Assembly (NCBI GenBank): GCA_017503865.1
Contig: JAFVSI010000015.1
Location: forward strand, 7,175-71,174
Direction: 5' to 3'
Length of the DNA: 64,000 bases
Origin: Clostridia bacterium
GTDB lineage: Bacteria; Bacillota; Clostridia; Oscillospirales; CAG-272
Shown one piece after another: positions 8,865 to 57,926 of the stretch. Numbering within the stretch: position 1 is the stretch's first letter; every line of letters starts with the position of its first letter. Position numbers and translations under genes: made by a program. Below the pieces are notes generated by a model. That model searched no databases, was not told where the DNA came from, and was given only the letters and a program-made list of their open reading frames with translations.

Positions 8865-8877
8865 GGGGGTAACAGGT

Positions 8878-9708: not shown

Positions 9709-9712
9709 AATT

Positions 9713-10132: not shown

Positions 10133-10145
10133 TGGGAGAATTTTT

Positions 10146-10674: not shown

Positions 10675-10703
10675 CTAAACAATAAAAAAATTGGAGGTGT
10701 TTT

Positions 10704-11684: not shown

Positions 11685-11687
11685 TAG

Positions 11688-11714
11688 AAACGGGTGGTCA
11701 ACCACCCGTTTTTA
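11688..11714 (+). terminator. Hairpin/terminator between the lipoprotein gene and apbE
   Basis: aaacgggtgg (11688..11697), tcaa loop, ccacccgttt (11702..11711), then T run. Confidence 0.7.
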
Positions 11715-11723
11715 ATAAATATT

Positions 11724-12776: not shown

Positions 12777-12802
12777 AGGAGAAAGCAAGTGCTTTCTCCT
12801 TT
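12775..12802. terminator. Bidirectional terminator shared by apbE and lplA
   Basis: aaaggagaaagc / gctttctccttt with aagt loop. A/T runs on both sides. Overlaps both stop codons. Confidence 0.75.
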
Positions 12803-13769: not shown

Positions 13770-13814
13770 ATTTCGGGCATATTTCTATGCCCGAAATCTT
13801 TCTATAAATTTTGA

Positions 13815-16298: not shown

Positions 16299-16321
16299 TT
16301 TTATATCTCCTTTTAAAAATA

Positions 16322-17680
16322 TTACATAAACATAGATTCACGAATAACTTCGCAAACCGTGGGGTGCGGGAATACGATCTTCTGAATATCCTCAACTCTC
16401 ATTTCGGTCTCAACCATCATAGCTGCACCGTAAATGATTTCAGAAGCGTAGCTACCGATCATGTGAAGTCCAACGATATTCTTGTGCTTCTTATCGGTAA
16501 TTACCTTAAGAATTCCGTATCCGTGCTCGTTCTCGGCAATATATCTGCCGCTGTACTTGAGAGTAACAGTCTGAACGTTTACGTCAAGCCCCTTCTCCTT
16601 GGCACTTTCAGTTGTTTCACCAACCGAAGCGACCTCAGGATTTGTATAGATTACTGCAGGAATGGAGTTGTAGTTGACTCTATCCTTCTTGCCAAGAATA
16701 TTGTTTATACAAACTTCGCCTTCTCTGTAAGCAGTATGAGCAAGCATTGACTTACCGTTTACGTCACCTGCTGCCCAAACACCAGGAACGTTTGTCTTAC
16801 CCATCTCGTTAGTAACTATAGCACCACGTTCAAGCTTAAGTCCGATATTTTCGCAACCGATACCTGCGGTTCTTGCACGACGACCGATAGAAACAAGAGC
16901 GTAATCACAAGGAATTTCAGTAACCTTGCCGTCCTTCTCATAGCAAACCTTCTTGTCCTTGATAGAGGTTACTCTTGCACCAAGAATAAACTCAACTCCA
17001 CGAGAAGCATAATCCTTTTGAAGGAGTGTTGAAATTTCTCTATCAACAGGACCTGCGATATGGTCGAGCATCTCAACAACGTAAACCTTGGAGCCTACTG
17101 AATTGAAGTAAGATGCCATCTCAAGACCTATAACACCACCGCCGACAACAACCATTGTCTTAGGAATCTCAGTAAGGTCAAGAACCTCTCTGTTTGTAAG
17201 TGCGAAGCCTGCCTTAAGAGAATCAGCAAGACCGTCAATAGGAGGAAGTGCGGGAGCAGAACCTGTAGCAATAAGAAGCTGTTTACCAACGTAATCCTTG
17301 CCGTCAGCAGTGACAACGAAACCTTCACTGTTTCTCTCCTTGATAACGGCAGAAGCCTTAACGACCTCAACGCCGCTCTTCTTCATCTTTCCGCCTATAC
17401 CGGAAACGAGCTGTTTTACAACACCGTTTTTACGGTTTACCACAAAAGCGTGGTCGATCTCAGCAGAACCAAAGGTTACACCGTAATCCTTGCCGTGCTT
17501 AGCATAATCATAAATCTTTGCGGAATACAAAAGAGTCTTTGTGGGGATACAACCCTCGTTAAGACAAACACCGCCAAGAGCTCTCTCTTCTATAACGAGA
17601 GTCTTGAGACCTGCGTGGCCGGCTCTTTCAGCCGCATTATAACCAGCAGGGCCGCCACCGAGAATAATTAAATCGTACAT
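16322..17680 (-). CDS. lpdA: Dihydrolipoyl dehydrogenase (E3)
   Basis: GGGPAGY FAD fold, redox disulfide GGVCLNEGCIPTK, C-terminal HPTVCEVIRE. Confidence 0.96.
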   Translation of the reverse strand: MYDLIILGGGPAGYNAAERAGHAGLKTLVIEERALGGVCLNEGCIPTKTLLYSAKIYDYAKHGKDYGVTFGSAEIDHAFVVNRKNGVVKQLVSGIGGKMKKSGVEVVKASAVIKERNSEGFVVTADGKDYVGKQLLIATGSAPALPPIDGLADSLKAGFALTNREVLDLTEIPKTMVVVGGGVIGLEMASYFNSVGSKVYVVEMLDHIAGPVDREISTLLQKDYASRGVEFILGARVTSIKDKKVCYEKDGKVTEIPCDYALVSIGRRARTAGIGCENIGLKLERGAIVTNEMGKTNVPGVWAAGDVNGKSMLAHTAYREGEVCINNILGKKDRVNYNSIPAVIYTNPEVASVGETTESAKEKGLDVNVQTVTLKYSGRYIAENEHGYGILKVITDKKHKNIVGLHMIGSYASEIIYGAAMMVETEMRVEDIQKIVFPHPTVCEVIRESMFM

Positions 17681-17696
17681 TTACAAACTTCCCTTC

Positions 17697-19028
17697 TTAC
17701 TTTGTCAAAAGCAAATCAAAATTTTCAAGTGCGAATACAAGCTCCTTGAGGAATCTTGCCGCATCAGCACCGTCAAGCACTCTATGGTCAACAGTAAGAG
17801 AAAGTCCCATTGCAGAATAGGTTACGTCCTCACCGTTAACTTCCTTAATTCTCTTTGTCAAGCCGCAAACACCAAGTATTGCTGTCTGGGGAGGATTGAT
17901 AATGGGAGTAAAGGACTCAATTCCAAGAGAACCGAGATTAGAAATCGTGAAGGTTGCACCCTTGAGATAGTCAGGGTTGATAGTACCGCTCTGAGCAGCA
18001 GCTATAACAGACTTAGCTTCCTTTGAGATCTCGTTAAGAGACATTTTCTCTGCGTGGAATACGGTAGGAACCATAAGTCCTCTTTCGGTATCAACCGCAA
18101 CACCGATGTTAACTGTGTTGAAATATCTCATTGTCTCGTCAAGACAGTGAGCATTGAGTCCCTTGTGGTTAAGAACTACACGGGATACAGCGTAAAGAAT
18201 GATATCATTAAGAGTTATGTTAGCAAGTCCCATCTTCTCAGCACCAGCCTTAAGAGACTTACGAAGAGCAAGAATCTTTGTTGCATCAAAAGAAGTATTG
18301 AGTGTGATCTGTGCCATTGTTGTAAGAGACGCACACATCTGCTTAGAAATGATCTTTCTGATATTTGAAAGCTTAACATCCTCATATTCAGCAACAGTAG
18401 TAGCAACGGGAGCCTCGGTAGCTACTGCTGCGGCGGGAGCATTGAGATCAGCGAGAACAACCTTTCCGTTAATTCCGCTTCCCTCAACTGCTGTTGTGTA
18501 GTTAGCAGAAGCAGCACCGGAAACGGTAAGTCCGCGATCAACAAGACTCTGAACGTCTCTCTCTATAATACGTCCGTTAGGACCTGTAGGTGTCGCCTTA
18601 AGAAGGTCTGCACCTGTCTTTGCTGCAAGAGCCTTAGCTCTCGGAGAAATAGCACCGGTAGCTTCGCTTGAAGTAGCTTGTGCCGCAACCTCAACTGTCG
18701 CTGCAGTCTCAGCAGGTGCTGCCTCAGCCGCCTGAGCCTCTGCTACGGGCTCATCCTCAGATTTAGGAACGAAAGCTGAAAAATCCTCTCCGTCCTGACC
18801 AATAACACATACGTTTTCAAGACAAGGAACGTCATCGCCCTCTTCTCTGAAAATTGCCAAAATTTTTCCACTCTCGGGAGCGGGCTCATCGAAGGAAGAT
18901 TTATCTGTCTCGTACGAGAAAAGAATTTCTCCCTTTTCAACTGTATCGCCAACCTTCTTGTTCCAAGAAGTGATGATACAGGATTCAACGCTCTGTCCCT
19001 GACGTGGCATAATAATCGGTGTTGCCAT
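17697..19028 (-). CDS. Dihydrolipoamide acyltransferase (E2)
   Basis: Lipoyl domain with YETDKSSFD lysine, Ala/Glu-rich linker, E3-binding domain SPRAKALAAKTGADL, catalytic DHRVLDGA. Confidence 0.95.
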   Translation of the reverse strand: MATPIIMPRQGQSVESCIITSWNKKVGDTVEKGEILFSYETDKSSFDEPAPESGKILAIFREEGDDVPCLENVCVIGQDGEDFSAFVPKSEDEPVAEAQAAEAAPAETAATVEVAAQATSSEATGAISPRAKALAAKTGADLLKATPTGPNGRIIERDVQSLVDRGLTVSGAASANYTTAVEGSGINGKVVLADLNAPAAAVATEAPVATTVAEYEDVKLSNIRKIISKQMCASLTTMAQITLNTSFDATKILALRKSLKAGAEKMGLANITLNDIILYAVSRVVLNHKGLNAHCLDETMRYFNTVNIGVAVDTERGLMVPTVFHAEKMSLNEISKEAKSVIAAAQSGTINPDYLKGATFTISNLGSLGIESFTPIINPPQTAILGVCGLTKRIKEVNGEDVTYSAMGLSLTVDHRVLDGADAARFLKELVFALENFDLLLTK

Positions 19029-19325: not shown

Positions 19326-20765
19326 TTAGAACTGTTTAATAAGCCTTATGTAAAATTCAACCGCACGGCAAAGCGTTTCAAGTCGGATTTTCTCATTATT
19401 ACCGTGAATGCTTGCTCTCTCTTCACTCGTGAGATCCATAGCCGAAAAACGGTAAACCTTGTCGGAAATTTTGCCGTAATGACGGCTATCTGAGCACTGA
19501 ACCATAAGGTATGGCGAGACAATCGTTCCTTTCCAAGTGTCAGCAATTGCTTTTGCAACTCTCTCATAACCTTCACAATCGGTTCTTGAAATACGGCTTG
19601 GCTCGTTACCGTGAATCTTAGTTACGCTAACCCTGTCGTTGTCTATAGTTTTTCTAATGTACTCGACAGCACCGTCAATCGAGTCAGCAGGATTAAGACG
19701 AATATTTGAAACCATAGTAGCGGTAGGAGGAATAACGTTTGAAGCATCGCTACCCTTCATTTGTGTAAAGGCAACTGTCGTTCTCATAAGAGCGTTCATT
19801 TCACCACCGCTCTTCTTGGCAATCATATCAAGCACAGGTCTAAAGCACCAAAGATTTGCAAAAATCATTCTATAAACAAAGGTTGAATGTCGGCCGAGAG
19901 TATCGAACATTTGACGAACAGGCTCGGTTATATGACACTTAAAAGGATTTGCTTCAACCTTGCAACAAGCAGCGGAAAGCTCGCCGACAGGAGTATGAGC
20001 TTTAGGAGCAGATGCGTGACCGCCGTTTGACTGTACCTCATATTTCAAATCAAGAAGTCCCTTCTCAGCAATACCGACCATAGCACAAGGAGCTTTGACA
20101 CCCGGAAAAACGTTTTCAACAACGGCACCGCCCTCGTCAACAACCGCACGAAGCACGATTCCTTGCTTTTCAAAATAATCAACTATATGACAAGCACCAA
20201 GTCCGTTTACCTCTTCTCCGCCCGAAAAAGCAAAATAAATGTCATTTTCCGGTACAAAGCCTTCCGCAATAAGATGATTTGAGGCAGAGAGAATTCCGTT
20301 GACTGTTACCTTAGTGTCAAGCGTTCCTCTTCCCCACATAACACCGTCCTCTATTATTGCTTCAAAGGGGGGCTTTGACCACTTTTCTTCAACAACGGGA
20401 ACTACGTCGTAATGTGCCATAAGCACAAGCGGTTCTCCTACAGTTTTTCCCGGCCATCTAAATAAAAGTCCTCTGTCATCAAGCGTTTTTAGCTCACACG
20501 TAGCAAAAACATTCGGGTATAGAGTTGGAAGAAGATTTATAAGCTTTTCAAATTCAGCATCGTCCTCGTCATCACGAGAATATCTCGACACGGTTTTACA
20601 CTTTACAAGCGAAGCCAGTGCCGAAATAGCGGCGTCCTTATCAAAGTTAATTTCCTCGCATTCACTCTCATCTTGCTTTTTTGGAACAAAAAGTGCGGTA
20701 CGTATTAAAACAACAGCTAAAAAAGCTAAGATTAGTGCAGAAAGAATAATTACAAAATACAACAT
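19326..20765 (-). CDS. Membrane-anchored M20 family metallopeptidase
   Basis: 479 aa. N-terminal TM helix followed by R/KK. M20 metal-ligand blocks MAHYDVVP and FSGGEEVNG. Confidence 0.88.
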   Translation of the reverse strand: MLYFVIILSALILAFLAVVLIRTALFVPKKQDESECEEINFDKDAAISALASLVKCKTVSRYSRDDEDDAEFEKLINLLPTLYPNVFATCELKTLDDRGLLFRWPGKTVGEPLVLMAHYDVVPVVEEKWSKPPFEAIIEDGVMWGRGTLDTKVTVNGILSASNHLIAEGFVPENDIYFAFSGGEEVNGLGACHIVDYFEKQGIVLRAVVDEGGAVVENVFPGVKAPCAMVGIAEKGLLDLKYEVQSNGGHASAPKAHTPVGELSAACCKVEANPFKCHITEPVRQMFDTLGRHSTFVYRMIFANLWCFRPVLDMIAKKSGGEMNALMRTTVAFTQMKGSDASNVIPPTATMVSNIRLNPADSIDGAVEYIRKTIDNDRVSVTKIHGNEPSRISRTDCEGYERVAKAIADTWKGTIVSPYLMVQCSDSRHYGKISDKVYRFSAMDLTSEERASIHGNNEKIRLETLCRAVEFYIRLIKQF

Positions 20766-21442
20766 TAAAGAATCCCCTTCTTATACAAGATTCGAGCATA
20801 CGCAAGAGTAAATACAACACCAACGGGAACCATGATTCCTACCGTACCCGCATTAAGAGCAGGGACAAAAATAAATGCGATAAGCATAAGAATAACAGGG
20901 CCGATAGCAAGTTTTACGTTTTTTGATACGAATACGACTCCAAGTGCTCCAAAAAGTGCGGGAAGCATTTGGTCGAAGGCAGGCTTTAACGTTGCAGAAG
21001 ATAAAATAGGCTCAAGAGGGGCTATAAGCAAAACTCCAATTATTATGATAAAGGTAGTTACAATAGAGGAAACGGCTATCGAAATAGTAGATATAAGCTC
21101 GCCCTCTTCGCTTTGAGCTTTAACGTTTGCGTTTTCAAGAGCCCCGAGTGCACAAGGAAGCTTTAAATTAGAAATATTGCCTGTTACAAAGGATAGATAA
21201 GAGCCACCTGCACCAAGCATGGGTATGTAAGTGATAGTCTCAATTATACCGACCGCCCAATACATAGGAGCGGTAGCAAGAAGTCCCTTGCCAACTCCTG
21301 CCCAGTCGGGTATTGCCGAAAAGATAACACCGACAACAACAGGAAACGCCATAAGAAGGACCATCATAGAGAGATTCCAGATGCGACCGTCACGGTGGAC
21401 ACTGTCCATATAAGTAAATTCTTTTCTATTCATTTTCTTCAT
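20765..21442 (-). CDS. Uncharacterised polytopic membrane protein (about 6 TM)
   Basis: 225 aa, hydrophobic. Stop overlaps the M20 start (TAATG). Start overlaps the upstream membrane gene's stop (ATGA). Confidence 0.7.
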   Translation of the reverse strand: MKKMNRKEFTYMDSVHRDGRIWNLSMMVLLMAFPVVVGVIFSAIPDWAGVGKGLLATAPMYWAVGIIETITYIPMLGAGGSYLSFVTGNISNLKLPCALGALENANVKAQSEEGELISTISIAVSSIVTTFIIIIGVLLIAPLEPILSSATLKPAFDQMLPALFGALGVVFVSKNVKLAIGPVILMLIAFIFVPALNAGTVGIMVPVGVVFTLAYARILYKKGIL

Positions 21443-23493: not shown

Positions 23494-24204
23494 TCATTCT
23501 TCGTTTTCTTCGGTTTGTGCTGCCTTGTTTAGACCGACAACACAGTCAACAGGCAAAGAAAATATTATTCCCCTTCCTTGCGTGTTAATGCCCGAAGCCT
23601 CGGCAATAGCATTCATTACCTTGTTTTTATCCTCACGCTTTACAACGTTGAGTATGATTTCCTTTTCGGGCTGAATTGCAATACCGAGGAATTTCTGTGC
23701 TTCCTCAGCACCCATTCCGAGTGCGTGAATAAGTGTACCGCCTCTTGCACCTGCAGAAATAGCAGCAGTTTTTACGTCTTGAAAATATCCTCTTGTTATT
23801 ATTGTTATAACCAGCTCATACTGATGTTCGCTTGACATATAAAAATCCTTCTCCTTAGTTATTTTAGGTTGAGTCTCGTCATCTTTTTTGACAATTCCCG
23901 ACAAAAAAGATGTGGCACTTGTAAGAGGAACGGTAAACATTATTCCCTTACCGGGCTTTGAAATGTTTATTTTCTCTTCTGCGAGGTCAAAAATATAATT
24001 GGCACGTTCAGAGGAAATAATCGAGATCATTATGCTTTTTTTATTCTCACCAAAGCCAAGATATTCAAACATTGACGAGTCAGCGCATCCAAATCCGTGA
24101 GTCGATACACTGATCGGAGCTTTTGCAGAATTAAATACGTGAGCCAACTCTTCGCTCTTGCTGTAATCAACAATTGAAAACAACGCACAAATTCTATTAC
24201 TCAT
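23494..24204 (-). CDS. Tandem PII-like (GlnB-fold) protein, two fused units
   Basis: 236 aa. The second unit aligns by eye to GlnB (VITIITRGYFQDVKTAAISAGARGGTLIHALGMG...KEIILNVV...GRGIIFSLPVD). The first unit is more divergent. ATGA overlap with the DUF1538 gene. Confidence 0.7.
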   Translation of the reverse strand: MSNRICALFSIVDYSKSEELAHVFNSAKAPISVSTHGFGCADSSMFEYLGFGENKKSIMISIISSERANYIFDLAEEKINISKPGKGIMFTVPLTSATSFLSGIVKKDDETQPKITKEKDFYMSSEHQYELVITIITRGYFQDVKTAAISAGARGGTLIHALGMGAEEAQKFLGIAIQPEKEIILNVVKREDKNKVMNAIAEASGINTQGRGIIFSLPVDCVVGLNKAAQTEENEE

Positions 24205-25784
24205 ATCTCACTCTCCTCTTCATAAATATCAAATTCAACGATTTCATCAGAAAGCGTTGCAATAGAAACAACTGGCTCGACAGCACGTCTCGCAATAGCG
24301 GTTTTTATCTTTGCAACAAGGCCAAGCAACTGGATAGTTACAAGGGGCGTCATAGCAACGAACGCGACAAGACCGTACGCGTCAGTCAAAGGATTACCGT
24401 TAACAGCACTGCAAGCACCGAGTGCGAGCGGTAAAAGGAAGGTCGCCGTCATAGGGCCGGATGCAACTCCACCCGAGTCAAAGGCAATGGCGGTAAATAT
24501 AGGCGGAACTAAAAAGGTCATTACTAATGAGAACAAATATCCCGGAATAAGAATATACCATATAGACATTCCAGTAATAACACGAAGGAGTGCAAGTGCC
24601 ACCGACAGTGCAACTCCAATTGAAAGTGCAAAGCCTACAGACTTTCCTTTTACAGCACCTTCCGTAACGTCTTCAACCTGATGTTTTAAAACGTGAACAG
24701 CTGGCTCAGCAGAAACGATGAACCAACCAATAACAGCTCCGATGGGTAAAAGCAACCAAGGCATATTACTTTCGCCAATAGCTTCTCCGATAAAGCTGCC
24801 CATAGGCATAAATCCAACGTTAACACCCGTCAGGAACAAAACGAGTCCTATGTACGTATAAATGAGTCCAACGAGAATTTGTATTACGTTGACCTTACCA
24901 AGCTTGAGTGAAAATATCTGAAAAATAATAAAGAAAATAAGAATAGGAAGAAGTGCTACGGCGACCTCGACCATATGATCGGGCAATTCCTTTACGTATT
25001 GATAAAACACGGCGGAAATAGAGGTAAGTGCCTCAGCCGATTCTCTTCCTATCTCAACACCCGACACACCGTTTAGCGCACCGAGAATAAGCACTGTAAT
25101 AATAGGTCCTATCGAGCAGAGTGCGACGAGACCAAAGCTGTCTTCTGCTGAATTCTTATCACCTCTAACAGAAGCAAGTCCGACACCGAGTGCCATTATA
25201 AAAGGAACGGTAATGGGTCCTGTTGTTACTCCGCCCGAATCAAATGCAACAGCAACAAAATTGTTTGGAATTAGAGGTGACATAGCCAAAACAAATATAA
25301 GACCGTACATTACGAGTAATATATATGAAAGCTTGACCTGAAGATAAACTCTGAAGAAAGAGACCACCAAGAAAATTCCAACGCCAACAGCTACTGAAAT
25401 TATCATAACCGAAGGGTCGACGACTTTTTCAAGTGAGTCAGCAAGAACACGAAGATCAGGTTCTGCAATCGTTGCTATAACACCAAGAATAAAACAAACG
25501 ACAGTCACAAGAAGAATACTTCTTGACTTAGTGATATGTGAGCCTATTGATTGACCTATTTTCATCATCGATACATCCGCACCAAGTGTAAAAAAGGTCA
25601 TACCAATTATCAAAAGAATTGTAGCAATTATAAAAGATATTATTGAAAAGAATGACGCTTTTGCAACTGTTAGCGACAAGACTAAAACAATTGCCGCGAC
25701 GGGAAAAACTGCAAAAAACGCTTCTTTGAATTTTTCGAATAAATGTTTAATCAATTTTATATACCTCAAGCCTAAACGCAACAT
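24201..25784 (-). CDS. Tandem DUF1538 membrane protein (internal duplication)
   Basis: 527 aa polytopic. Repeated signature AFDSGGVTTGPITVPFIMALGVG / AFDSGGVASGPMTATFLLPLALG. Alternative TTG start at 25754 has a GAGG RBS. Confidence 0.8.
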   Translation of the reverse strand: MLRLGLRYIKLIKHLFEKFKEAFFAVFPVAAIVLVLSLTVAKASFFSIISFIIATILLIIGMTFFTLGADVSMMKIGQSIGSHITKSRSILLVTVVCFILGVIATIAEPDLRVLADSLEKVVDPSVMIISVAVGVGIFLVVSFFRVYLQVKLSYILLVMYGLIFVLAMSPLIPNNFVAVAFDSGGVTTGPITVPFIMALGVGLASVRGDKNSAEDSFGLVALCSIGPIITVLILGALNGVSGVEIGRESAEALTSISAVFYQYVKELPDHMVEVAVALLPILIFFIIFQIFSLKLGKVNVIQILVGLIYTYIGLVLFLTGVNVGFMPMGSFIGEAIGESNMPWLLLPIGAVIGWFIVSAEPAVHVLKHQVEDVTEGAVKGKSVGFALSIGVALSVALALLRVITGMSIWYILIPGYLFSLVMTFLVPPIFTAIAFDSGGVASGPMTATFLLPLALGACSAVNGNPLTDAYGLVAFVAMTPLVTIQLLGLVAKIKTAIARRAVEPVVSIATLSDEIVEFDIYEEESEI

Positions 25785-44528: not shown

Positions 44529-44554
44529 AAGGCGATGACATAAGTCATCGCCTT
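44529..44554. terminator. Bidirectional terminator between eno and carB-dapF
   Basis: aaggcgatgac / gtcatcgcctt stem with ataa loop. A run upstream and T run downstream. Confidence 0.85.
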
Positions 44555-44560
44555 AATTTT

Positions 44561-47500
44561 TTATATTTCAAATTCTCCGTTATAGATAAGCTCTGCGTTT
44601 CCTGTGAGAGTTACGCACTCTTCAGTGTAGTTTACTATAAGGTCACCGCCGCGAAGCTTAACGGTAATGTCTTCGCCCATACGGCAGAATCCGTTTTCTA
44701 CAGCCGCAACAACAGCCGCACAAGCACCGGTACCGCAACCGTAGGTCTCACCGTTACCACGCTCCCAAACACGCATTTTTATTGTGTTGTCGTTTACAAC
44801 ACGGATAAACTCGGTGTTAATTCTCTCGGGGAATTCCTTTGCACTCTCAAAGAGAGGTCCAACTCGCTTTACGTAAACACCGTCAACGTAATCCGAGAAT
44901 ACAACACAGTGAGGATTACCCATTGATACACAAGTTATCTTATAATCCTTTCCGCCAACGCTGAAGGGGTAGTTAATAACCTTATCTGCCTTAATGGTTG
45001 TAGGAATATCCTTAGAGAAGATACTTGCCTTACCCATATTTACACTTACAGATGAAACCTTACCGTTTCTCGTGTAGAGCTTGAGCTGCTTAACACCGCT
45101 TCCTGTCTCAACAGTAATATCTTCTTTATCAACTATATGATTATCATAGAGATATTTACCTACGCAACGGATACAGTTACCTGCCATCTTACCTTCACTA
45201 CCGTCAAGGTTGAAAATACGCATCTTTGCATCGGCAACCTCAGACTTTTCAATAAGAACAAGACCGTAAGCACCAACGCCGTAGTGTCTATTGCAAAGAG
45301 TGAGACAAAGCGACTCGGGACAAGTGATTTTACCGTCAAAGTTTTCAATGAAGATATAGTCGTCCCCTGTTCCGTGCATTTTTGCAAACTTAAACTTACG
45401 AGGCTCGCTTCTCATATCGTTGATGTCAACAAGCTCAGTATTCTGCTGATTAAATCTACTTGCGATAACGTCAGCGAGAGCATTTGCAGTATCAAGAGAC
45501 GTGAGACAAGCAACTGAGTGCTGAAGAGCCTTTCTGTGAAGTGCTATATAATCGTCAAGAGTTGTGCTGAAAAGCTCGCCCGTATAAACAATGTAGCTTA
45601 TCTTTCCTTCCTCAATAAGCTCGTAGGCATCCTTACTGTCATTTATGCCTCTGACAGTTCTAACGTCAACGCCAAGTCCTTCAATAGCTCTTGCAGTATC
45701 CTTAGTAGCGTATATCTTCATTCCAAGGTCGTCAAGCTTCTTGGCAAGACTAACGATCTCTTTAAGGTCGTGTTCGTCAACACTGATAAATACACCGACG
45801 TCAGATCCTGAAGAAGGAGCTTTTATCTTAAATCCTGCCGAGGTCATACCTTTGAATATTGCCTCGTTAAGCGTAGCACCAAGACCGAGAACCTCTCCTG
45901 TTGACTTCATCTCAGGACCGAGATAGGAGTTAGCGTCGGTAAGCTTTTCGAACGAAAATACGGGAACCTTGACCGCATAGTAAGGCGGAGTCTTATAAAG
46001 ACCAGTTCCGTAGCCGAGATCCTTAAGCGGCTCACCTATCATTACACGTGTTGCAAGGTCAACCATAGGAACACCCGTAACCTTACTGATGTAAGGAATT
46101 GTTCTTGAAGCACGGGGGTTAACCTCAATTACGTAAAGCTCGTTTCTCCAAATAAGGTACTGAATATTTACAAGTCCCTTTGTACCGAGAGAAAGTGCGA
46201 GCTGTGTTGAAGACTCTATAAGAGTTTCAAGCATCTTATCATTAAGATTGTAAGGGGGATATACAGCAATAGAGTCACCGCTGTGAACTCCTGCACGCTC
46301 GATATGCTGCATAACACCGGGAATAAGAACGTCCTTGCCGTCGGAAATTACGTCAACCTCAAGCTCCATTCCCTTCATATACTTATCAACGAGAACGGGA
46401 TTTTCAATTCCAGTTGAAAGTATTCTCTTCATATATGCTCTGACCTCTGTATCGTTATACACGATAGACATATTCTGTCCACCGATAACGTAAGAGGGAC
46501 GAAGAAGCACGGGGTAACCGATATCATTACCGGCCTTAATGGCTTCCTCAGTAGTCATAACACTTGTACCAACGGGACGCTTGATGGAGAATCTTTCAAG
46601 AAGTGCATCAAACTTTTCTCTATCCTCAGCTGTATCAATTCCCTCAGCAGAAGTACCGAGAATTTTGATTCCGTTGTCATCAAGGAATTTTGTAAGCTTT
46701 ATAGCTGTCTGTCCACCAAAGGCAACAACGACGCCAATAGGCTTCTCAATTTCAATGATGTTCATAACGTCCTCAGACGTAAGAGGCTCGAAATACAAGC
46801 GGTCTGCAGTATCATAGTCGGTAGATACAGTCTCAGGGTTGTTGTTTACGATAACAACATCATAACCGAGACGCTTTAGAGCCCAAACGCAGTGAACAGA
46901 AGAATAGTCAAACTCAATTCCCTGTCCTATACGGATAGGACCTGAACCGAGAACAAGAATAGTAGGCTTACCGCTACGTGCAAACGTGCGGGATTCGCAA
47001 TCCTTGTCGTACGTCGAATAAAAGTAAGGCGTCTTAGCATCAAACTCAGCAGCACAGGTATCAACCATTTTATATGACGCACGGAGCTTAGGAAGCTCAT
47101 CGCAACCGCCCATCTTGATAAGTGCCTTGTCGGGATAACCGAGATTTTTACCCTTCTTATACTCTTCAAGACCGATTCCGTTTTCGACAACGTCACGCTC
47201 GTACTGAACAAGGTTCATAAGCTTATGGAGGAACCAAGGATCTATTCTTGTTATCTCGTGAATGGTCTCAATTTCTACACCGCTTTTAAGTGCCTCAAAA
47301 ACAGTAAAGAGTCTGCGGTCGTCGGAAATCTTAAGACGCTCCATAAGAGGCTTGTCCGAAATAGGAGCAGCATTGAGAGTATCAAGAGAAATTTCAGCTC
47401 CTCGTACCGCCTTCATAATAGCCTGCTCGAAGCTTGTACCGATGGACATTACTTCACCTGTAGCCTTCATCTGCGTACCAAGCATACGGCTCGCACCCGT

Positions 47501-48595
47501 GAACTTTTCAAAAGGCCACTTAGGCATCTTTACTACAACGTAGTCGATAGCAGGCTCAAAGCAAGCACAAGTTTTACCCGTAATATCGTTTGTAATTTCA
47601 TCAAGTGTATAACCAAGAGCGATCTTCGAGGTTATCTTTGCAATAGGATAGCCGGTTGCTTTACTTGCAAGAGCTGACGAACGTGAAACACGAGGGTTAA
47701 CCTCTATAACTGCATACTCAAAGCTATCAGGATTGAGAGCAAACTGACAGTTACATCCACCAACTATCTCAAGTGCACAAATAATCTCGAGAGCCGCTGT
47801 ACGAAGCATCTGGTATTCCTTAGGGGAAAGTGTAAGAGCGGGAGCTACGACTATTGAGTCGCCCGTATGTACTCCAACAGGGTCGAAGTTTTCCATACTA
47901 CAAACCGCGATACAGTTTCCTGCAGAGTCACGCATAGTCTCAAATTCAATTTCTTTCCAGCCGTAAATATATCTCTCAACGAGAATCTGACTGATAGGCG
48001 ATGCATCAAGTCCCGTCTTTGCGACGAGCTTAAGCTCCTCGGGATTGTTAGCAACTCCGCCGCCTGCACCGCCGAGTGTGAAAGCAGGACGAATAATAAC
48101 GGGATAACCAATCTTTCCTGCAATAACGAGAGCTGTGTGAACGTCGTTAGCTATATCAGAAGGAATACAAGGCTGACCTATGGCTTCCATTGTATCCTTG
48201 AACATCTGTCTATCCTCTGCTTTGTCAATCGCACGGGCATCAGTTCCAAGAAGTCTTACGTTATGCGATTCAAGGAAGCCCTCGTGAGAAAGCTGCATGG
48301 CAATTGTAAGACCTGTTTGACCGCCAAGACCAGCAAGAATGCTGTCGGGCTTTTCTTTTTCAATAATTCTCTTAACAGTTTCAACCGTAAGAGGCTCGAG
48401 ATATATCTCATCAGCGAGAGCACTGTCTGTCATAATGGTAGCGGGGTTGGAGTTTACAAGAACAACGTTTACACCGGCATCCTTAAGAACTCTACAAGCC
48501 TGAGCTCCCGCGTAGTCAAACTCTGCCGCCTGACCGATAACGATAGGGCCTGAACCAATTACAAGAACTTTTTTAATATCTTTATTAAGCGGCAT
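44561..48595 (-). CDS. carB: Carbamoyl-phosphate synthase large subunit fused in frame to diaminopimelate epimerase
   Basis: 1344 aa. Residues 1 to about 1066 (45398..48595) are a complete CarB: two ATP-grasp halves, oligomerisation domain and MGS-like domain. The last 278 aa (44564..45397) are a complete DapF (KMHGTGDDY, GNCIRC, SMGNPH, ERGNGETYGCGTGA). No stop or frameshift at the junction. Confidence 0.92.
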   Translation of the reverse strand: MPLNKDIKKVLVIGSGPIVIGQAAEFDYAGAQACRVLKDAGVNVVLVNSNPATIMTDSALADEIYLEPLTVETVKRIIEKEKPDSILAGLGGQTGLTIAMQLSHEGFLESHNVRLLGTDARAIDKAEDRQMFKDTMEAIGQPCIPSDIANDVHTALVIAGKIGYPVIIRPAFTLGGAGGGVANNPEELKLVAKTGLDASPISQILVERYIYGWKEIEFETMRDSAGNCIAVCSMENFDPVGVHTGDSIVVAPALTLSPKEYQMLRTAALEIICALEIVGGCNCQFALNPDSFEYAVIEVNPRVSRSSALASKATGYPIAKITSKIALGYTLDEITNDITGKTCACFEPAIDYVVVKMPKWPFEKFTGASRMLGTQMKATGEVMSIGTSFEQAIMKAVRGAEISLDTLNAAPISDKPLMERLKISDDRRLFTVFEALKSGVEIETIHEITRIDPWFLHKLMNLVQYERDVVENGIGLEEYKKGKNLGYPDKALIKMGGCDELPKLRASYKMVDTCAAEFDAKTPYFYSTYDKDCESRTFARSGKPTILVLGSGPIRIGQGIEFDYSSVHCVWALKRLGYDVVIVNNNPETVSTDYDTADRLYFEPLTSEDVMNIIEIEKPIGVVVAFGGQTAIKLTKFLDDNGIKILGTSAEGIDTAEDREKFDALLERFSIKRPVGTSVMTTEEAIKAGNDIGYPVLLRPSYVIGGQNMSIVYNDTEVRAYMKRILSTGIENPVLVDKYMKGMELEVDVISDGKDVLIPGVMQHIERAGVHSGDSIAVYPPYNLNDKMLETLIESSTQLALSLGTKGLVNIQYLIWRNELYVIEVNPRASRTIPYISKVTGVPMVDLATRVMIGEPLKDLGYGTGLYKTPPYYAVKVPVFSFEKLTDANSYLGPEMKSTGEVLGLGATLNEAIFKGMTSAGFKIKAPSSGSDVGVFISVDEHDLKEIVSLAKKLDDLGMKIYATKDTARAIEGLGVDVRTVRGINDSKDAYELIEEGKISYIVYTGELFSTTLDDYIALHRKALQHSVACLTSLDTANALADVIASRFNQQNTELVDINDMRSEPRKFKFAKMHGTGDDYIFIENFDGKITCPESLCLTLCNRHYGVGAYGLVLIEKSEVADAKMRIFNLDGSEGKMAGNCIRCVGKYLYDNHIVDKEDITVETGSGVKQLKLYTRNGKVSSVSVNMGKASIFSKDIPTTIKADKVINYPFSVGGKDYKITCVSMGNPHCVVFSDYVDGVYVKRVGPLFESAKEFPERINTEFIRVVNDNTIKMRVWERGNGETYGCGTGACAAVVAAVENGFCRMGEDITVKLRGGDLIVNYTEECVTLTGNAELIYNGEFEI

Positions 48596-49653
48596 TAGTT
48601 TTCTCCTTCCATCATTTTGATAAATCTGTCATAGAGGAAAAGTGTTCCTCTCGCACCCTCCCAGTTATCTGGAAGGAACTGAACGGAAAACGCACCAAAC
48701 TCGGGGTAATCTATTCCCTCACAACTCTTATCGTTGACGTTTATAAAGCTTACCACTCCGTGATTTGTGCTGTCAGAAGCAACAGCAAATCCGTGATTTT
48801 GTGCTGTTATAAACGTTCTTGTTCCATCTGTTTCACGTACAGGCTGATTTGAGCCTCTGTGACCGTATTTGAGCTTATATGTCATACCTCCGTCAGCAAG
48901 AGCCAAAAGCTCGTGACCGAGACCAATTGCAAATATAGGCTTCTTACCGAGAAGTGCCTTTACCTCTTCAATATAGAAAACGTTTTCAGAGGGATCTCCG
49001 GGTCCGTTTGAAAGAAGAATTCCATCGGGCTCGGTTGCAAGAATTTCATCAGCGGTAAAAGTTGCAGGAACTACTGTAACTGCACAGCCCTTAGCCTGAA
49101 GCGACTTAATAGCATCGCTTACAGAGCCATAGTTTACAACTGTAACGTTCAGCTTTTCGTCTCCTTCAGCAAACTTCTGAGTTTGGGCACTTGTTACCGA
49201 TGCAACTGCATCAACGATTTTAAAATTCTTGATTTCCTCAAAATCCTTAGGGATCTCACTGCAGATACAAGCATTCATAGTTCCGTTTTCACGGAGTATC
49301 TTTGTTATTTGTCTTGTATCAACTCCGCAAATTCCGGGAATGTTGTTGTTTTTAAGGAAGGTGTCAAGATCGTACTGACTTCTGAAATTTGAAGGCTTTT
49401 CACAGTATTCACGCACCACATATCCGCCAAGTGCACACTTTCCAACGAAATCCTCTTCAATAACTCCGTAATTTCCTATCATAGGAAACGTCTGCATAAC
49501 TATTTGTCCGTAGTATGCGGGGTCTGTAAGAGTTTCAATGTAACCAACTGCCTGTGTGTTAAAAACGAGCTCGCCGATTCCCTTGCACTCTGCACCAAAG
49601 GAATAACCTTCAAATACGTGTCCGTCTTCAAGTATTAAATAAGCTTTTTTCAT
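48595..49653 (-). CDS. carA: Carbamoyl-phosphate synthase small subunit with a degenerate glutaminase active site
   Basis: 352 aa. Conserved CarA blocks present (LLSNGPGDP, ITAQNHGFAV). The nucleophile motif reads AIGLGHE instead of GICLGHQ. The HPE motif reads FLPD. TAATG overlap with carB. Confidence 0.9.
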   Translation of the reverse strand: MKKAYLILEDGHVFEGYSFGAECKGIGELVFNTQAVGYIETLTDPAYYGQIVMQTFPMIGNYGVIEEDFVGKCALGGYVVREYCEKPSNFRSQYDLDTFLKNNNIPGICGVDTRQITKILRENGTMNACICSEIPKDFEEIKNFKIVDAVASVTSAQTQKFAEGDEKLNVTVVNYGSVSDAIKSLQAKGCAVTVVPATFTADEILATEPDGILLSNGPGDPSENVFYIEEVKALLGKKPIFAIGLGHELLALADGGMTYKLKYGHRGSNQPVRETDGTRTFITAQNHGFAVASDSTNHGVVSFINVNDKSCEGIDYPEFGAFSVQFLPDNWEGARGTLFLYDRFIKMMEGEN

Positions 49654-49672: not shown

Positions 49673-50575
49673 TTATGCAAGACATTTAACAAGTACAGCC
49701 TTTTGAGCGTGGAGACGGTTTTCCGCCTCGTCAAAGATTTCTGCAGCGTGCTCTTCGAACACCTCAGCAGTTATCTCCTCTTCTCTATGTGCGGGCAAGC
49801 AGTGGAGCACCATAGCATCCTTTGCCGCAACGTTCATAACGTCACGGTTTATCTGATAGCCCTTGAATATTTCACGACGCATAGCAGCCTCATCCTCTTG
49901 TCCCATAGACGCCCATACGTCCGTGTAAAGAACGTCTGCATCCTTTGCAGCCTCAAGAACGTTATCGGTACAAGTAAATCTACCGGTTGCCTCTGCCCAT
50001 TTCATTATTTCAGCATCGGGAGCATAGTCCTTAGGACAAGCCACCGAAACTGTCATTCCCATCTTTATTCCGCCAACTATAAGCGAGTTTGTCATATTAT
50101 TACCATCGCCAATATAGCAAAGCTTCTTTCCGCTTATCTCTCCCTTATACTCTCTGATAGTCATAAGGTCAGCAAGTACCTGACAAGGGTGACAGTAATC
50201 TGTCAAACCGTTGATAACGGGTATCTGTCCGCAAGAAGCAAGGGACTCGACCTCTTCCTGAGCAAAAGTTCTTATCATAATACCGTCAAGGTAACGGGAA
50301 AGAACTCTCGCGGTATCCTGCACGGGCTCACCTCTACCTATCTGAAGGTCTCTTGAACTAAGAAAGAGTGCCGCTCCACCAAGGTCGTACATTCCGACTT
50401 CAAAGGATACACGCGTTCTTGTCGAGGATTTTTCAAATATCATTCCAAGCGTCTTACCCTTAAGAATGTGGTGCGTTATACCGTTTTTCTTCTCATATTT
50501 GAGCTTATCTGCGGTATCAAGTATCTCATCGATCTCCTCTTTGGAAAGATCCATAAGCTTTAACAAATGCTTCAT
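49673..50575 (-). CDS. argF: Ornithine carbamoyltransferase
   Basis: STRTRVSFE, HPCQVLAD, DVWASMG and HCLPA motifs. Confidence 0.95.
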   Translation of the reverse strand: MKHLLKLMDLSKEEIDEILDTADKLKYEKKNGITHHILKGKTLGMIFEKSSTRTRVSFEVGMYDLGGAALFLSSRDLQIGRGEPVQDTARVLSRYLDGIMIRTFAQEEVESLASCGQIPVINGLTDYCHPCQVLADLMTIREYKGEISGKKLCYIGDGNNMTNSLIVGGIKMGMTVSVACPKDYAPDAEIMKWAEATGRFTCTDNVLEAAKDADVLYTDVWASMGQEDEAAMRREIFKGYQINRDVMNVAAKDAMVLHCLPAHREEEITAEVFEEHAAEIFDEAENRLHAQKAVLVKCLA

Positions 50576-50605: not shown

Positions 50606-51979
50606 TCAATTTAATTCGTTTCTTATGTAAGCAACCTGTGCCTCAACCGATTCTACCGAAGTACCCCCCTCGGAAATTCTCTTTGAAACACACGTTTCGA
50701 GAGAGATCTCACCGTAAAGATCTTCCTCAAAGAGTTCACTGTGCTCTCTATATTTGTCAAGTGAAAGCTCGTCAAGAACACAGTTCTCTGAAATACACTG
50801 TGCAACTATCTGTCCGACTATCTTATACGCGCTTCTGAAGGGCATTCCCTTCTTTGCAAGATAATCCGCAAGGTCGGTAGCATTTATAAATCCGCCCTGA
50901 GCGGCACGGTACATATTGTCAGCCTTGACCTTCATGGTCCTTACCATAGGACAAAATACCTTGAGGCACATAATAACAGTATCGACCGAGTCGAATATTG
51001 CCTCTTTATCTTCTTGCATATCCTTGTTGTAGGCAAGGGGTAAACCCTTAAGTGCGACAAGAAGTGCTATAAGATCACCGTATACTCTTCCCGTTTTGCC
51101 TCGCACAAGCTCTGCCATATCCGAATTCTTCTTTTGAGGCATTATAGAAGAACCTGTTGTATATGAATCATCAAGCTCTACAAACTTGAATTCCCAGCTT
51201 GACCAAAGGATTATTTCCTCGGAAAACCTTGAAAGATGCATCATAAGGATTGAAAATGCACTCATAAGCTCAAGACAAAAATCCCTGTCAGAAACTCCGT
51301 CAATGCTATTCATACAAATTCCGTCAAAGGAAAGCTTTTCGGCAACCATTCTTCTGTCGGTATTATAAGTTGTACCCGCAAGTGCACAAGAGCCGAGAGG
51401 TGAGTAATTCATACGTGCAACCGCGTCCTTGATTCTCGAGACGTCACGCGAAAGCATCATAGCATAAGCCATAAGCTGATGACCGAAGGTGATAGGTTGT
51501 GCCCTTTGAAGATGCGTATATCCGGGCATGATGACCGTCTTGTTCTCTTCAGCTTTATCAGCCACTGTAAGAGCGAGCTCCTTTATAAGCTCAACTATTT
51601 CCTCGCATTTGTCTCTAAGATAAAGTCTTATGTCGAGGGCAACCTGGTCGTTTCTGCTGCGAGCTGTATGGAGCTTTTTACCTGTGTCTCCAATACGTTT
51701 TGTAAGCTCGCTTTCAACGAACATATGAATATCCTCAGCAGCCATATCTATTTCAAGTTTTCCACTGTTGATATCGTCAAGTATGGACGTAAGTCCGTCA
51801 ATTATTTCGGCAAGATCGCTTTCTGTAATGATACCCTGTTTTGCAAGCATCGAAGCGTGTGCAATAGAGCCTTTTATGTCCTGAGCATACATTCTGCTGT
51901 CAAAATGTATCGACGAATTGAAATCGTCAGCAAAGCTGTCAAGCTCTTTTAGAAACCTTCCCGACCACATTTTTTCCAT
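50606..51979 (-). CDS. argH: Argininosuccinate lyase
   Basis: 457 aa. Fumarate-lyase signature GSSIMPQKKN. MWSGRF N-terminus. Confidence 0.96.
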   Translation of the reverse strand: MEKMWSGRFLKELDSFADDFNSSIHFDSRMYAQDIKGSIAHASMLAKQGIITESDLAEIIDGLTSILDDINSGKLEIDMAAEDIHMFVESELTKRIGDTGKKLHTARSRNDQVALDIRLYLRDKCEEIVELIKELALTVADKAEENKTVIMPGYTHLQRAQPITFGHQLMAYAMMLSRDVSRIKDAVARMNYSPLGSCALAGTTYNTDRRMVAEKLSFDGICMNSIDGVSDRDFCLELMSAFSILMMHLSRFSEEIILWSSWEFKFVELDDSYTTGSSIMPQKKNSDMAELVRGKTGRVYGDLIALLVALKGLPLAYNKDMQEDKEAIFDSVDTVIMCLKVFCPMVRTMKVKADNMYRAAQGGFINATDLADYLAKKGMPFRSAYKIVGQIVAQCISENCVLDELSLDKYREHSELFEEDLYGEISLETCVSKRISEGGTSVESVEAQVAYIRNELN

Positions 51980-52042: not shown

Positions 52043-53278
52043 TTACTTTTGTTTATTTTTATTAGCCTGATTTACCTGAGCCTGAACCTTTATAGGAAGT
52101 CCAAACAAATTGATAAATCCTGTTGCATCAGCTTGGTTGTAAACGTGATCCTCACCGAAGGTAGCTATCTCTTCGGAATAAAGTGAGTAATCACTCCAAG
52201 CACCTGCCTTGATCATATTACCCTTGTAAAGCTTAATACGAACCTTACCGGTAACGTTCTCCTGAGTCTTTTCAACAAATGCCGAAAGAGCCTCACGAAG
52301 AGGTGTGAACCACTGACCGTTATAAACGAGGTCAGCAAATGTTACGCTAAGCTCGTCCTTCTTGTGAGCTGTATACTTATCAAGACAAAGAGTCTCAAGA
52401 TAGTTATGTGCGAAGTAAAGTATAGCTCCGCCGGGAGTCTCGTAAACTCCGCGACACTTCATACCGACAAGACGGTTCTCAACTATATCAAGAAGTCCTA
52501 TACCGTTTGCTCCACCGACCTTGTTAAGCTCAAGAATAATGTCCTTTGCACTCATCTTCTGATCGTTAAACGCAACGGGACGTCCTTTTTCAAACTCAAG
52601 GGTTATATAGGTGGGAACGTCGGGAGCATCAATAGGAGAAACACCCATCTCAAGAAAACCGGGCTTTTCGTAAAGAGGCTCGTTTCCTGCATCCTCAAGA
52701 TCAAGTCCCTCGTGACTGAGATGCCACATATTTTTATCCTTTGAGTAGTTAGTCTCACGGTTTATCTTAAGAGGAACGTTGTGTGCCTCAGCATATTCGA
52801 TCTCTTCCTCACGGGATTTGATATCCCACTCACGCCAAGGAGCGATAATAGGCATATCGGGAGCAAATGCCTTAATAGTAAGCTCGAAACGAACTTGGTC
52901 GTTACCCTTACCTGTACAACCGTGACAAATTGCGTCAGCACCCTCAGCCTCAGCAATCTCAACGATACGCTTTGCGATTACAGGACGTGCAAAGGAAGTA
53001 CCGAGAAGATACTCCTCGTATTTAGCACCTGCCATTACGGTAGGAATAATATAATCGTCAACGAACTCGTTAGTAAGGTCCTCTATGTAACACTTTGAAG
53101 CACCGGTCTTGATAGCCTTCTCTTCAAGTCCCTCAAGCTCGTCGCTCTGACCAACGTTACCGCTTACAGCGATAACCTCACAATTGTTGTAATTCTCCTT
53201 GAGCCACGGAATAATAATGGACGTATCAAGTCCGCCCGAGTACGCAAGAACAACTTTTTTGATATCTTTCTTTTCCAT
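52043..53278 (-). CDS. argG: Argininosuccinate synthase
   Basis: [12 protein letters not shown]-binding motif. Start moved to ATG 53278 (MEKKDIKK), behind a GAGAGGTG RBS. The ORF-track start at 53308 lies inside the operator. Confidence 0.95.
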
Positions 53279-53293
53279 TTTTAACACCTCTCG

Positions 53294-53328
53294 TGAATAT
53301 ATATTCAAATTACGTGAATATTATACAT
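53294..53328. promoter_or_regulatory. Tandem ARG boxes (ArgR/AhrC operator)
   Basis: Perfect palindrome TGAATATATATTCA (53294..53307) and a second, weaker box TGAATATTATACAT (53315..53328), 21 bp apart. Matches the TGAAT-W4-ATTCA core. Confidence 0.7.
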
Positions 53329-53348
53329 CTTATACATTGATTTGTCAA
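53320..53348 (-). promoter_or_regulatory. Consensus promoter of the arg operon
   Basis: Minus strand TTGACA (53343..53348), 17-nt spacer, TATAAT (53320..53325). The -10 box is overlapped by ARG box 2. Confidence 0.7.
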
Positions 53349-54658: not shown

Positions 54659-54961
54659 TTATGCAAGTGCGTGCTCAAGCCAAACGACACCAATGCTGAA
54701 AGCATCGTAAAGACCTTCCTTAGCTCCCTGCTTTATGATCTTGTTAGGATCTTTAGAATCAATGACCTGAACGAATATCTTGTCAGGTACCTGATTACCG
54801 CCTTCTTCCTTATACGACATTATCTCGAGAATGAGAATACATTTTTCCGTCTTATCTCCATAGCAAATGGTATTTCCCTCACGCACAAGCGGTCTGTCCT
54901 TGTACATAAGATATTTGCCTTCAACCAAATTAGTTATATCTGCCACAACTCGTACCTCCAT
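54659..54961 (-). CDS. Hypothetical small protein (95-100 aa)
   Basis: Protein-like composition, unlike its plus-strand mirror ORF. GGAGGT sits at codons 1-3, so GTG 54946 is an alternative start. No family recognised. Confidence 0.5.
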   Translation of the reverse strand: MEVRVVADITNLVEGKYLMYKDRPLVREGNTICYGDKTEKCILILEIMSYKEEGGNQVPDKIFVQVIDSKDPNKIIKQGAKEGLYDAFSIGVVWLEHALA

Positions 54962-56945: not shown

Positions 56946-57926
56946 TCAAAGCAATTTCTTGCGAAGCTCTTCACCACTCATCTGTGAGAGATATGCGGGA
57001 GCTACGTCAAGGACAGTCTTGCAGCCCTTTTGACCTTCCTTGTTCATTCTATATGCCGCACGTGCATATGCAACGAGGACGGACGAGGTAAACTCGGGGT
57101 TAGAGTCAAGCTTCAAGCTGTACTCGATAACGTGTTTATGCTCTTTGTTAAAGCCCGTCACACCGCTTCTTATCACAACGCCGCCGTGAGGAATGCCCGA
57201 ATGGTCACGGCGAAGCTCATCAAGAGAAATGAAATGAACAGTAGTATCGTAATCGGCAAAGTAGTTAGGCATCGTCTTTATCTCGTTCTCAATTCTTGCA
57301 AGATCTGCACCCTCTTCTGCAACAACGAAACACTCTCTTGTATGTTTCTCTCTTGCACTAAGCGTAGGAGCGTCACCGCTTCTAACTGCCTCAAGTGCCT
57401 TTTCTACGGGAATGGTATATTGTCTTGCATCAACAACGCCCTCTATTCTTCTGATAGCGTCGGAATGTCCCTGACTTACACCCTTACCCCAAAAAGTATA
57501 GTCGTTTCCTTCGGGGAGAATTGCTCCCGCGTACATTCTGTTAAGTGAGAACATACCGGGGTCCCAACCAACAGAAATAATAGCTACCTTTCCGCTCTCA
57601 CCTGCCGCCTTGTCAACGTTTGCAAAATGCTCGGGTATTCTTGCGTGGGTATCAAAGCTATCAATTACGTTAAAATATTTTACGTACTCGGGCGTCTGAA
57701 CAGGCAGGTCGGTCGCACTGCCACCGCAAATAATAAGAACGTCTATCATATCGGTAAGATTTTTAATATCGTCAATATGGTAAACACCAACGCCCTCGGT
57801 GGCGATCTTCAAGCTTTCGGGAGGTCTTCTTGTAACAACTGCAACAAGCTCCATGTCGCTGTTTTGTCTTATAGCAGCCTCAACGCCACGTCCGAGATTT
57901 CCATAACCTAAAATTCCTACTCGCAT
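56946..57926 (-). CDS. ddh: meso-Diaminopimelate D-dehydrogenase
   Basis: 326 aa, colinear with Corynebacterium Ddh: GYGNLGR, GWDPGMFS, WG.G.SQGHSDA.RR, MPNYF, PHGG. Confidence 0.92.
   Translation of the reverse strand: MRVGILGYGNLGRGVEAAIRQNSDMELVAVVTRRPPESLKIATEGVGVYHIDDIKNLTDMIDVLIICGGSATDLPVQTPEYVKYFNVIDSFDTHARIPEHFANVDKAAGESGKVAIISVGWDPGMFSLNRMYAGAILPEGNDYTFWGKGVSQGHSDAIRRIEGVVDARQYTIPVEKALEAVRSGDAPTLSAREKHTRECFVVAEEGADLARIENEIKTMPNYFADYDTTVHFISLDELRRDHSGIPHGGVVIRSGVTGFNKEHKHVIEYSLKLDSNPEFTSSVLVAYARAAYRMNKEGQKGCKTVLDVAPAYLSQMSGEELRKKLL

Follow-up and report, generated by a model that had tools for sequence, protein, structure and literature searches.

In bacteria, the small subunit of carbamoyl phosphate synthetase (CPS), encoded by carA, is known as a glutaminase with a Cys-His-Glu catalytic triad. 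Here, we describe a carA gene that has lost all three of these residues and is yet maintained by selection. It was found in a 64-kb stretch of contig JAFVSI010000015.1 from the assembly GCA_017503865.1 of a Clostridia bacterium (hereafter the window), where it forms part of an operon argG-argH-argF-carA-carB::dapF. Glutaminase activity has very probably been lost, because the glycine at the nucleophile position cannot attack glutamine and the leucine in place of the histidine cannot act as a general base. The pseudo-glutaminase probably serves as a structural partner of CarB in a holoenzyme running on free ammonia, and we consider it likely that free ammonia is also the substrate used in vivo. 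The protein would thus keep the CarA fold and the CarB-docking N-terminal domain, would be unable to hydrolyse glutamine and would be retained as the obligatory partner of a fully competent CarB, and the operon would most likely supply carbamoyl phosphate made from free NH3, bicarbonate and two ATP. Moreover, this gene is one member of a large and recurrent class, a scope wider than a first, sequence-only reading of the window had supposed.

The loss of the triad depends on a correct assignment of alignment columns. In a phmmer alignment with E. coli CarA from the PDB (E-value of about 1e-69, high posterior probabilities at the motifs), 'ifaiGlghe' of the window protein is paired with 'vfgiClghq' and 'fsvqfLpD' with 'fsfqgHpE', and the same triad columns were obtained in MAFFT alignments of 122 and 264 CarA sequences (with 120 and then 262 relatives). 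This confirms the three substitutions that the sequence-only reading had proposed by eye (C269G, H353L and E355D in E. coli numbering), with codons exactly where it had placed them (Table 1). None of these alignments puts Cys, His or Glu at the catalytic columns. The blocks LLSNGPGDP and ITAQNHGFAV and the N-terminal small-chain domain, described as intact in the same reading, were recovered in the translation and by Pfam. Cys, His and Glu are invariant at these columns in 204 triad-intact relatives, so three changes at exactly these positions are not due to chance. Sequencing noise had been doubted from the start, and indeed exactly the same protein is encoded on 13 contigs that come from six or more independent ENA/Logan samples, which rules out an assembly or sequencing artefact.

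In domain content and setting the gene looks like an ordinary carA. It is preceded by a ribosome-binding site (GAGGTGA), its open reading frame (ORF) is full length, and its stop codon overlaps the carB start (TAATG), as noted before. Pfam detects CPSase_sm_chain (PF00988, 164.5 bits against a cutoff of 27, residues 6-130) and GATase (PF00117, 111.9 bits, residues 175-347), and the protein exceeds the curated NCBIfam equivalog cutoffs of PRK12838 (383 bits, cutoff 221) and TIGR01368 (378 bits, cutoff 307). Both domains, these cutoffs and the coupled carB neighbour, an arrangement that all relatives share, place it in the CarA family, although its G/L/D departs from the Cys-His-Glu triad of glutamine-hydrolysing CPS (EC 6.3.5.5). 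Since it passes the TIGR01368 cutoff for 'glutamine-hydrolyzing' proteins, annotation pipelines will label it, and the entire class with it, as EC 6.3.5.5. The AlphaFold2 model is of high confidence (mean predicted local distance difference test score, pLDDT, of 91.8) and superposes well on the E. coli small subunit (1jdb; template modelling (TM) score 0.94), which has the same two domains and 37% sequence identity, and on the N-terminal moiety of human CPS1 (TM score 0.88).

The triad-less state is shared by relatives. Among the 120 best homologues, all of those at 70-89% identity lack the His (replaced by Leu, Ile or Asn) and carry Asp for Glu; proteins at 59-67% identity are mostly C-H-E. 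A neighbour-joining tree calculated without the triad columns united 47 full-length sequences (49 including fragments) in one clade, to which a metagenome scan contributed only two extra members. Three more triad-less sequences from metagenome-assembled genomes (MAGs) are placed at its base (G-Y-E, G-V-E and G-E-gap), and additional ones occur near the clade (G-N-E, G-Y-D, A-Y-D, S-H-E) or far from it (G-Y-T, C-Y-E). The question raised by the sequence-only reading, whether related Clostridia carry the same G/L/D, has therefore a divided answer: within the clade the Asp is common to all and the His is absent from all, but the Gly is not fixed. The nucleophile column of the core clade holds 25 Gly, 12 Ser, nine Cys and one Ala, requires eight Fitch parsimony steps and ranks 22nd of 352 columns in variability, and its serines are encoded by AGC in some members and by TCN in others. 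Both the variability and the two serine codon types indicate that the Cys was lost several times, after the His was already gone. Such drift would be the behaviour expected of a catalytic residue that has become irrelevant.

The gene as a whole remains under purifying selection, while its amidotransferase-like domain is under relaxed constraint. Pairwise ratios of nonsynonymous to synonymous substitution rates (dN/dS; Nei-Gojobori, NG86) among nine clade members, with dS ranging from 0.8 to saturation, were 0.02-0.10 in the N-terminal domain, where the clade has 80 invariant columns out of 140, and 0.05-0.18 in the amidotransferase-like domain. At a CarB identity of 95-96%, the latter domain is 78-84% identical within the clade versus a mean of 95.3% (minimum 89.6%) in triad-intact pairs, and at 91% CarB identity the values are 72-77% versus 86%. 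This domain thus evolves about two to three times faster than in triad-intact relatives, with little or no acceleration in the N-terminal domain. Loss of the catalytic residues combined with purifying selection across species is characteristic of a pseudoenzyme. A decaying pseudogene or a sequencing or assembly error could also account for the disappearance of all three catalytic residues and for the faster evolution of the domain, but is hardly credible, as all members of the clade have a full-length ORF, dN/dS stays low even at dS of 0.8 and above, the protein recurs unchanged in different samples and its fold is predicted with confidence. Both decay and artefact were rejected on the selection values and the 13 contigs. 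The view of the sequence-only reading that the gene is maintained holds within the 47-member clade and is in line with the intact, coupled CarB.

The substitutions extend beyond the triad. About 15 residues with 90-100% conservation among the 204 intact relatives have been replaced together in the clade (E. coli numbering): Gly/Ser35 by Gln, Met36 by Ala, Glu71 by Val/Ala, Asp198 by Asn, Lys202 by Val/Ala, Asn204 by Asp/Glu, Ile205 by Ser/Ala, Gln273 by Glu (33 of 49 members), His353 and Glu355 as above, Ala356 by Asn/Asp, residue 357 by Trp, Pro360 by Glu/Gln and Asp362 by Gly. The exchange at position 273 presumably parallels one of the specificity substitutions of frog CPS I, and positions 35, 293, 309 and 358-361 line or wall the ammonia tunnel in the E. 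coli enzyme. The Gln in the position-35 column is Gln34 of the window protein. Where intact relatives read H-P-E-A-C-S-G-P-[KH]-D-T, the clade has a new and conserved loop, LPD[ND]W[A]G[QE]RGT. Its residues are kept faithfully (D355 and G362 in 47 of 47 sequences, W357 and R361 in 45 of 47), as is Q35 (45 of 49), and the pocket scaffold has stayed the same (Gly241, Gly243, Leu270, His272, Asn311, His312, Gly313, Gln351, Pro354).

This conservation of replacement residues and of the pocket scaffold might also point to a new function of the amidotransferase-like domain, either as a sensor of glutamine or another ligand that tunes CarB allosterically or as an ammonia entry or binding port built from the new loop and Gln35, some positions of which (35, 358-361) would presumably line the tunnel. 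A re-routed tunnel has been described for CPS1 by De Cima et al., with a proposed path that bypasses the old glutaminase site and possibly exists in the E. coli enzyme too (PMC4655335). However, the 104 triad-less representatives of the broader search described below have no replacement motif in common, and the 17 different residues found in their His column speak for loss in the wider class instead of a shared gain, so that we regard a new function as the general explanation as unlikely. For the structural-partner reading, two entry routes of NH3 can be proposed, i.e. the alternative path discussed for CPS1 and E. coli CPS, or, in the window clade, a dedicated route that may be formed by the rebuilt 353-363 loop and Gln35, which might either plug the old tunnel or open a port.

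Findings on E. coli CPS agree with ammonia use by a CPS with a dead small subunit. E. coli C269G/S and H353N mutants reportedly lose glutamine-dependent synthesis and keep the ammonia-dependent reaction. Blocking or perforating the glutamine tunnel of E. coli CPS abolishes glutamine use but leaves variants that are 'normally active with external ammonia' (PMC4655335), and CarB alone is an NH4+-dependent CPS according to a passage in PMC8121099 that cites Trotta 1971. As judged from its sequence, the CarB of the window keeps every catalytic, gate and tunnel residue checked (I18, I20, A23, E217, R265, M378, the ATP-site residues and the gate C232/A251/A314; gate residues after PMC8674909). CarB is 91-98% identical within the clade, and its C-terminal region is an ordinary MGS-like allosteric domain (Pfam). 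MAG names of triad-less relatives refer to yak, Tibetan sheep, cattle, and sheep colon and rectum, suggesting an ammonia-rich herbivore-gut habitat that fits ammonia use.

Several points weigh against this interpretation. The habitat is deduced from MAG and sample names only. E. coli CPS has a poor affinity for ammonia, and the CarB of the clade is nearly unmodified (nine clade-specific changes, all conservative, none at known functional sites), which leaves an adequate flux at physiological NH3 concentrations unexplained; with so few changes, we abandoned the notion of a CarB showing visible adaptation to ammonia. Part of the glutamine pocket (G241, G243, L270, N311, H312, G313) is retained, and ligand binding could persist. 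Finally, a second intact carA or another source of carbamoyl phosphate could be located outside the visible DNA.

The last point leads to the alternative that the CPS is still glutamine-dependent in vivo because a second CarA with an intact triad, or a different amidotransferase, has its gene elsewhere and supplies ammonia to this CarB, with the triad-less protein acting as a regulatory or assembly subunit or as the subunit of one isoform. Many Bacillota possess two CPSs, which serve arginine and pyrimidine synthesis, respectively (PMC8121099), and the visible 64 kb contain neither a second carA nor a pyr gene nor a glutaminase. Nonetheless, we consider this alternative rather improbable: the triad-less carA is translationally coupled to carB, the CarB-docking domain is its best conserved part, and the order argF-carA-carB::dapF is the same in triad-less and triad-intact relatives, so that by position it is orthologous to the intact carA found in sister species and is no spare paralogue. 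In Sporosarcina, moreover, a dead subunit is encoded in the pyr operon beside pyrAB (see below), so such a subunit can accompany the large subunit used for biosynthesis in a core pathway.

The class of triad-less small subunits is clearly large and diverse. The best 150 matches of a phmmer search against 1.84 billion 50%-identity representatives were 39-59% identical to the query, 141 of them full length. Thirty-seven of these were C-H-E and 104 lacked an intact triad, a ratio that does not reflect natural frequency, since fast-evolving proteins are over-represented in 50% clusters and the query itself was triad-less. Among these 104, the nucleophile column holds Gly in 84 sequences, and the Glu is kept in 40. 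The neighbour-joining tree of the representatives is a poorly resolved comb with triad-less and intact sequences interleaved and supports only that more than one loss has occurred. A profile of 45 diverse triad-less representatives, run against a set of 5.8 billion proteins, mostly retrieved sequences that also match Peptidase_C26 (PF07722) and whose triad states were not read; triad-intact relatives match PF07722 as well.

A search with one distant triad-less representative (P0197) uncovered a second lineage in Sporosarcina/Filibacter, where all 81 small subunits have Gly for Cys (46 G-Y-E, 33 G-H-E, one G-H-D and one G-L-D, the last being the same triplet as in the window), among them those of S. 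ureilytica, S. limicola and S. cyprini. An intact C-H-E is seen in the sister genera Viridibacillus, Lysinibacillus, Psychrobacillus, Ureibacillus and Paenisporosarcina. The loss is stepwise and independent of the one in the window clade. In S. ureilytica (complete genome CP017560.1) and Sporosarcina sp. CAU 1771 the gene is the pyrAA of a pyrimidine operon (pyrR-pyrP-pyrB-pyrC-pyrAA-pyrAB-pyrK-pyrD-pyrF-pyrE). Both lineages are bacterial but separate and share a CPS small subunit without triad, and the ammonia-rich lifestyle of Sporosarcina would be matched by the presumed gut habitat of the window clade. They differ in the operon concerned and in the degree of degeneration, which is at an earlier stage in Sporosarcina/Filibacter, where the PEASPGPED loop is intact and many sequences keep His and Glu. 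Sporosarcina is strongly ureolytic, and S. pasteurii has been reported to need ammonia and to be without glutamine synthetase/glutamate synthase activity (PMC6979283, PMC7775470). It is difficult to explain a dead glutaminase in the CPS of the de novo pyrimidine operon other than by ammonia use. These PyrAA proteins are annotated as ordinary small subunits, and no paper on their triad-less state was found in a literature search.

The closest functional parallel is vertebrate CPS1, whose glutaminase-like domain has lost the triad Cys (Ser294 in human) and with it its activity, and which uses free ammonia (PMC4655335). The comparison, already drawn in the sequence-only reading, is apt: both retain a glutaminase-like domain, inactive in CPS1 and predicted to be so in the window. 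The window system would thus resemble the ammonia-dependent CPS I type (EC 6.3.4.16) without belonging to its family. However, CPS1 is a single polypeptide of 1500 residues activated by N-acetylglutamate, and the human enzyme lost only the Cys (PMC4655335). In the window the small and large moieties are not fused but encoded by separate ORFs, all three triad residues are replaced, CarB is of the ordinary bacterial type fused to DapF, and the origin is independent. With respect to E. coli CarAB, the window gene is in effect a natural C269G/H353L/E355D triple mutant. The engineered E. coli mutants (C269S/G, H353N, G359F, perforated tunnel), two of which have structures in the PDB (C269S and G359F; 1c30, 1m6v), are laboratory products, unlike the natural, ancient and selected state seen here with its further clade-specific replacements.

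Among prokaryotes, the orphan CarB2 (BT3866) of Bacteroides thetaiotaomicron was proposed from fitness data to use ammonium directly when it is plentiful (PMC8121099). It shares with the window system the gut origin and the proposed ammonium dependence, but it has no small-subunit partner and coexists with a canonical CarAB, whereas in the window CarB has a dead small subunit that has been retained and is co-translated with it. Carbamoyl phosphate is also made directly from ammonia in Pyrococcus furiosus and Methanobrevibacter smithii, as cited in a passage of PMC8121099. These archaeal systems have prokaryotic synthesis from ammonia in common with our interpretation; their enzymes are small or carbamate-kinase-like and without a CarA-like subunit, in contrast to the window. 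Every CPS type except vertebrate CPS1 has been stated to use glutamine (PMC4655335), and all bacterial CPSs found so far have been stated to be glutamine-dependent (PMC8121099). Our full-text literature search retrieved no description of a triad-less bacterial CarA, although its coverage was incomplete and an earlier description is possible. On balance, we lean slightly towards the view that bacterial CPSs have switched to free ammonia repeatedly and independently by killing yet keeping CarA in ammonia-rich niches, with at least 104 triad-less clusters among the 150 nearest representatives. These would form a large and unrecognised class that at present carries the annotation 'glutamine-hydrolyzing' throughout.

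Table 1. Features of the triad-less CPS locus in the window and of the two Sporosarcina pyrAA genes; positions refer to the window unless a locus extract is given.
Feature	Position	Strand	Basis
carA, CPS small subunit with predicted dead glutaminase site, 352 aa	48595..49653	minus	ORF, HMM matches, phmmer alignment
N-terminal CPSase small-chain domain, aa 6-130, main CarB-docking domain	49264..49638	minus	Pfam
Class-I amidotransferase-like domain, aa 175-347; fold and scaffold motifs retained, catalytic triad gone	48613..49131	minus	Pfam, alignments, AlphaFold2
Gly244 (GGT), nucleophile column, E. coli Cys269 equivalent	48922..48924	minus	phmmer and MAFFT alignment
Leu327 (CTT), E. coli His353 column	48673..48675	minus	phmmer and MAFFT alignment
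Asp329 (GAT), E. coli Glu355 column	48667..48669	minus	phmmer and MAFFT alignment
Remodelled loop L-P-D-N-W-E-G-A-R-G-T, E. coli 353-363 equivalent	48643..48675	minus	alignment columns
carB::dapF, CPS large subunit (aa 1-1047) fused in frame to diaminopimelate epimerase (aa 1069-1342)	44561..48595	minus	
argF, ornithine carbamoyltransferase, consumer of carbamoyl phosphate	49673..50575	minus	TIGR00658, 426 bits vs cutoff 281
argH, argininosuccinate lyase	50606..51979	minus	Pfam
argG, argininosuccinate synthase	52043..53308	minus	Pfam
Sigma-70-type promoter match (12/12 consensus TTGACA-17-TATAAT) upstream of argG, likely operon promoter	53320..53348	minus	pattern match only
Bidirectional intrinsic-terminator-like hairpin (11 bp stem) between carB::dapF and convergent enolase gene, likely operon end	44529..44554	.	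pattern match only
Triad-less pyrAA, S. ureilytica CP017560.1	10001..11104 of locus extract L171		
Triad-less pyrAA, Sporosarcina sp. CAU 1771	10001..11101 of locus extract L172		

The remaining parts of the arginine operon are listed in Table 1. For argG, the TTG start at 53308 has probably been called 10 codons too far upstream, as related contigs give a product of 411 residues. No Rfam family (at the gathering threshold) and no tRNA gene were found in the 64 kb, and no T-box or other riboswitch turned up ahead of the operon. The DapF part of CarB::DapF is complete (TIGR00652, 274 bits, both catalytic Cys motifs), and the fusion is present in 99 of 101 complete CarB ORFs from related Clostridia loci irrespective of the triad state; a literature search found no paper on a carB::dapF fusion. 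Eight kb away from it (56946..57926, minus strand) lies ddh, encoding meso-diaminopimelate dehydrogenase (TIGR01921, 446 bits), i.e. the ammonium-consuming route to meso-diaminopimelate. The presence of both Ddh and a DapF domain in the same genome is reminiscent of the ammonium-dependent ddh/dapLF switch of B. thetaiotaomicron, where the ddh versus dapL/dapF routes were linked to ammonium supply (PMC8121099).

Elsewhere in the window, a 236-residue protein with a C-terminal P-II nitrogen-regulatory domain overlaps by four bases with a 527-residue DUF1538 membrane protein (23494..25784, minus), and the two may form a P-II-controlled transporter pair. An rnfCDGEAB cluster (4157..12776, plus) has an unusually long RnfG (395 residues, two FMN_bind stretches) and is followed by genes for a NusG_II-domain protein, a heptaprenyl diphosphate synthase component I-like protein, a 326-residue ORF without Pfam match and ApbE. 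A 2-oxoacid dehydrogenase complex of this spore-forming anaerobe (12801..19028, minus) comprises a fused E1 alpha/beta (827 residues), E3, E2 and a lipoate-protein ligase. Three ORFs had no Pfam family at E ≤0.01, namely the 326-residue one (10704..11684, plus), one of 225 residues (20765..21442, minus) between a DUF5058 protein and an M20 peptidase, and one of 100 residues (54659..54961, minus).

In textbooks, CPS exemplifies the glutamine amidotransferases that have an ammonia tunnel, and a maintained CarA without triad in many bacterial lineages would be the bacterial counterpart of CPS I. If true, this would overturn the statement that all bacterial CPSs are glutamine-dependent, with repeated switches in herbivore-gut Clostridia (arginine operon) and ureolytic Sporosarcina (pyrimidine operon). 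The systematic annotation error ('glutamine-hydrolyzing') affects metabolic models of gut and rumen microbiomes. Triad-less CarA proteins would moreover be natural experiments on the non-catalytic role of the small subunit for CarB, and cultured Sporosarcina strains with complete genomes make the ammonia question directly testable. More generally, such switches would illustrate the rewiring of nitrogen metabolism where ammonia is abundant, for instance in the rumen, in the hindgut and in ureolytic niches.

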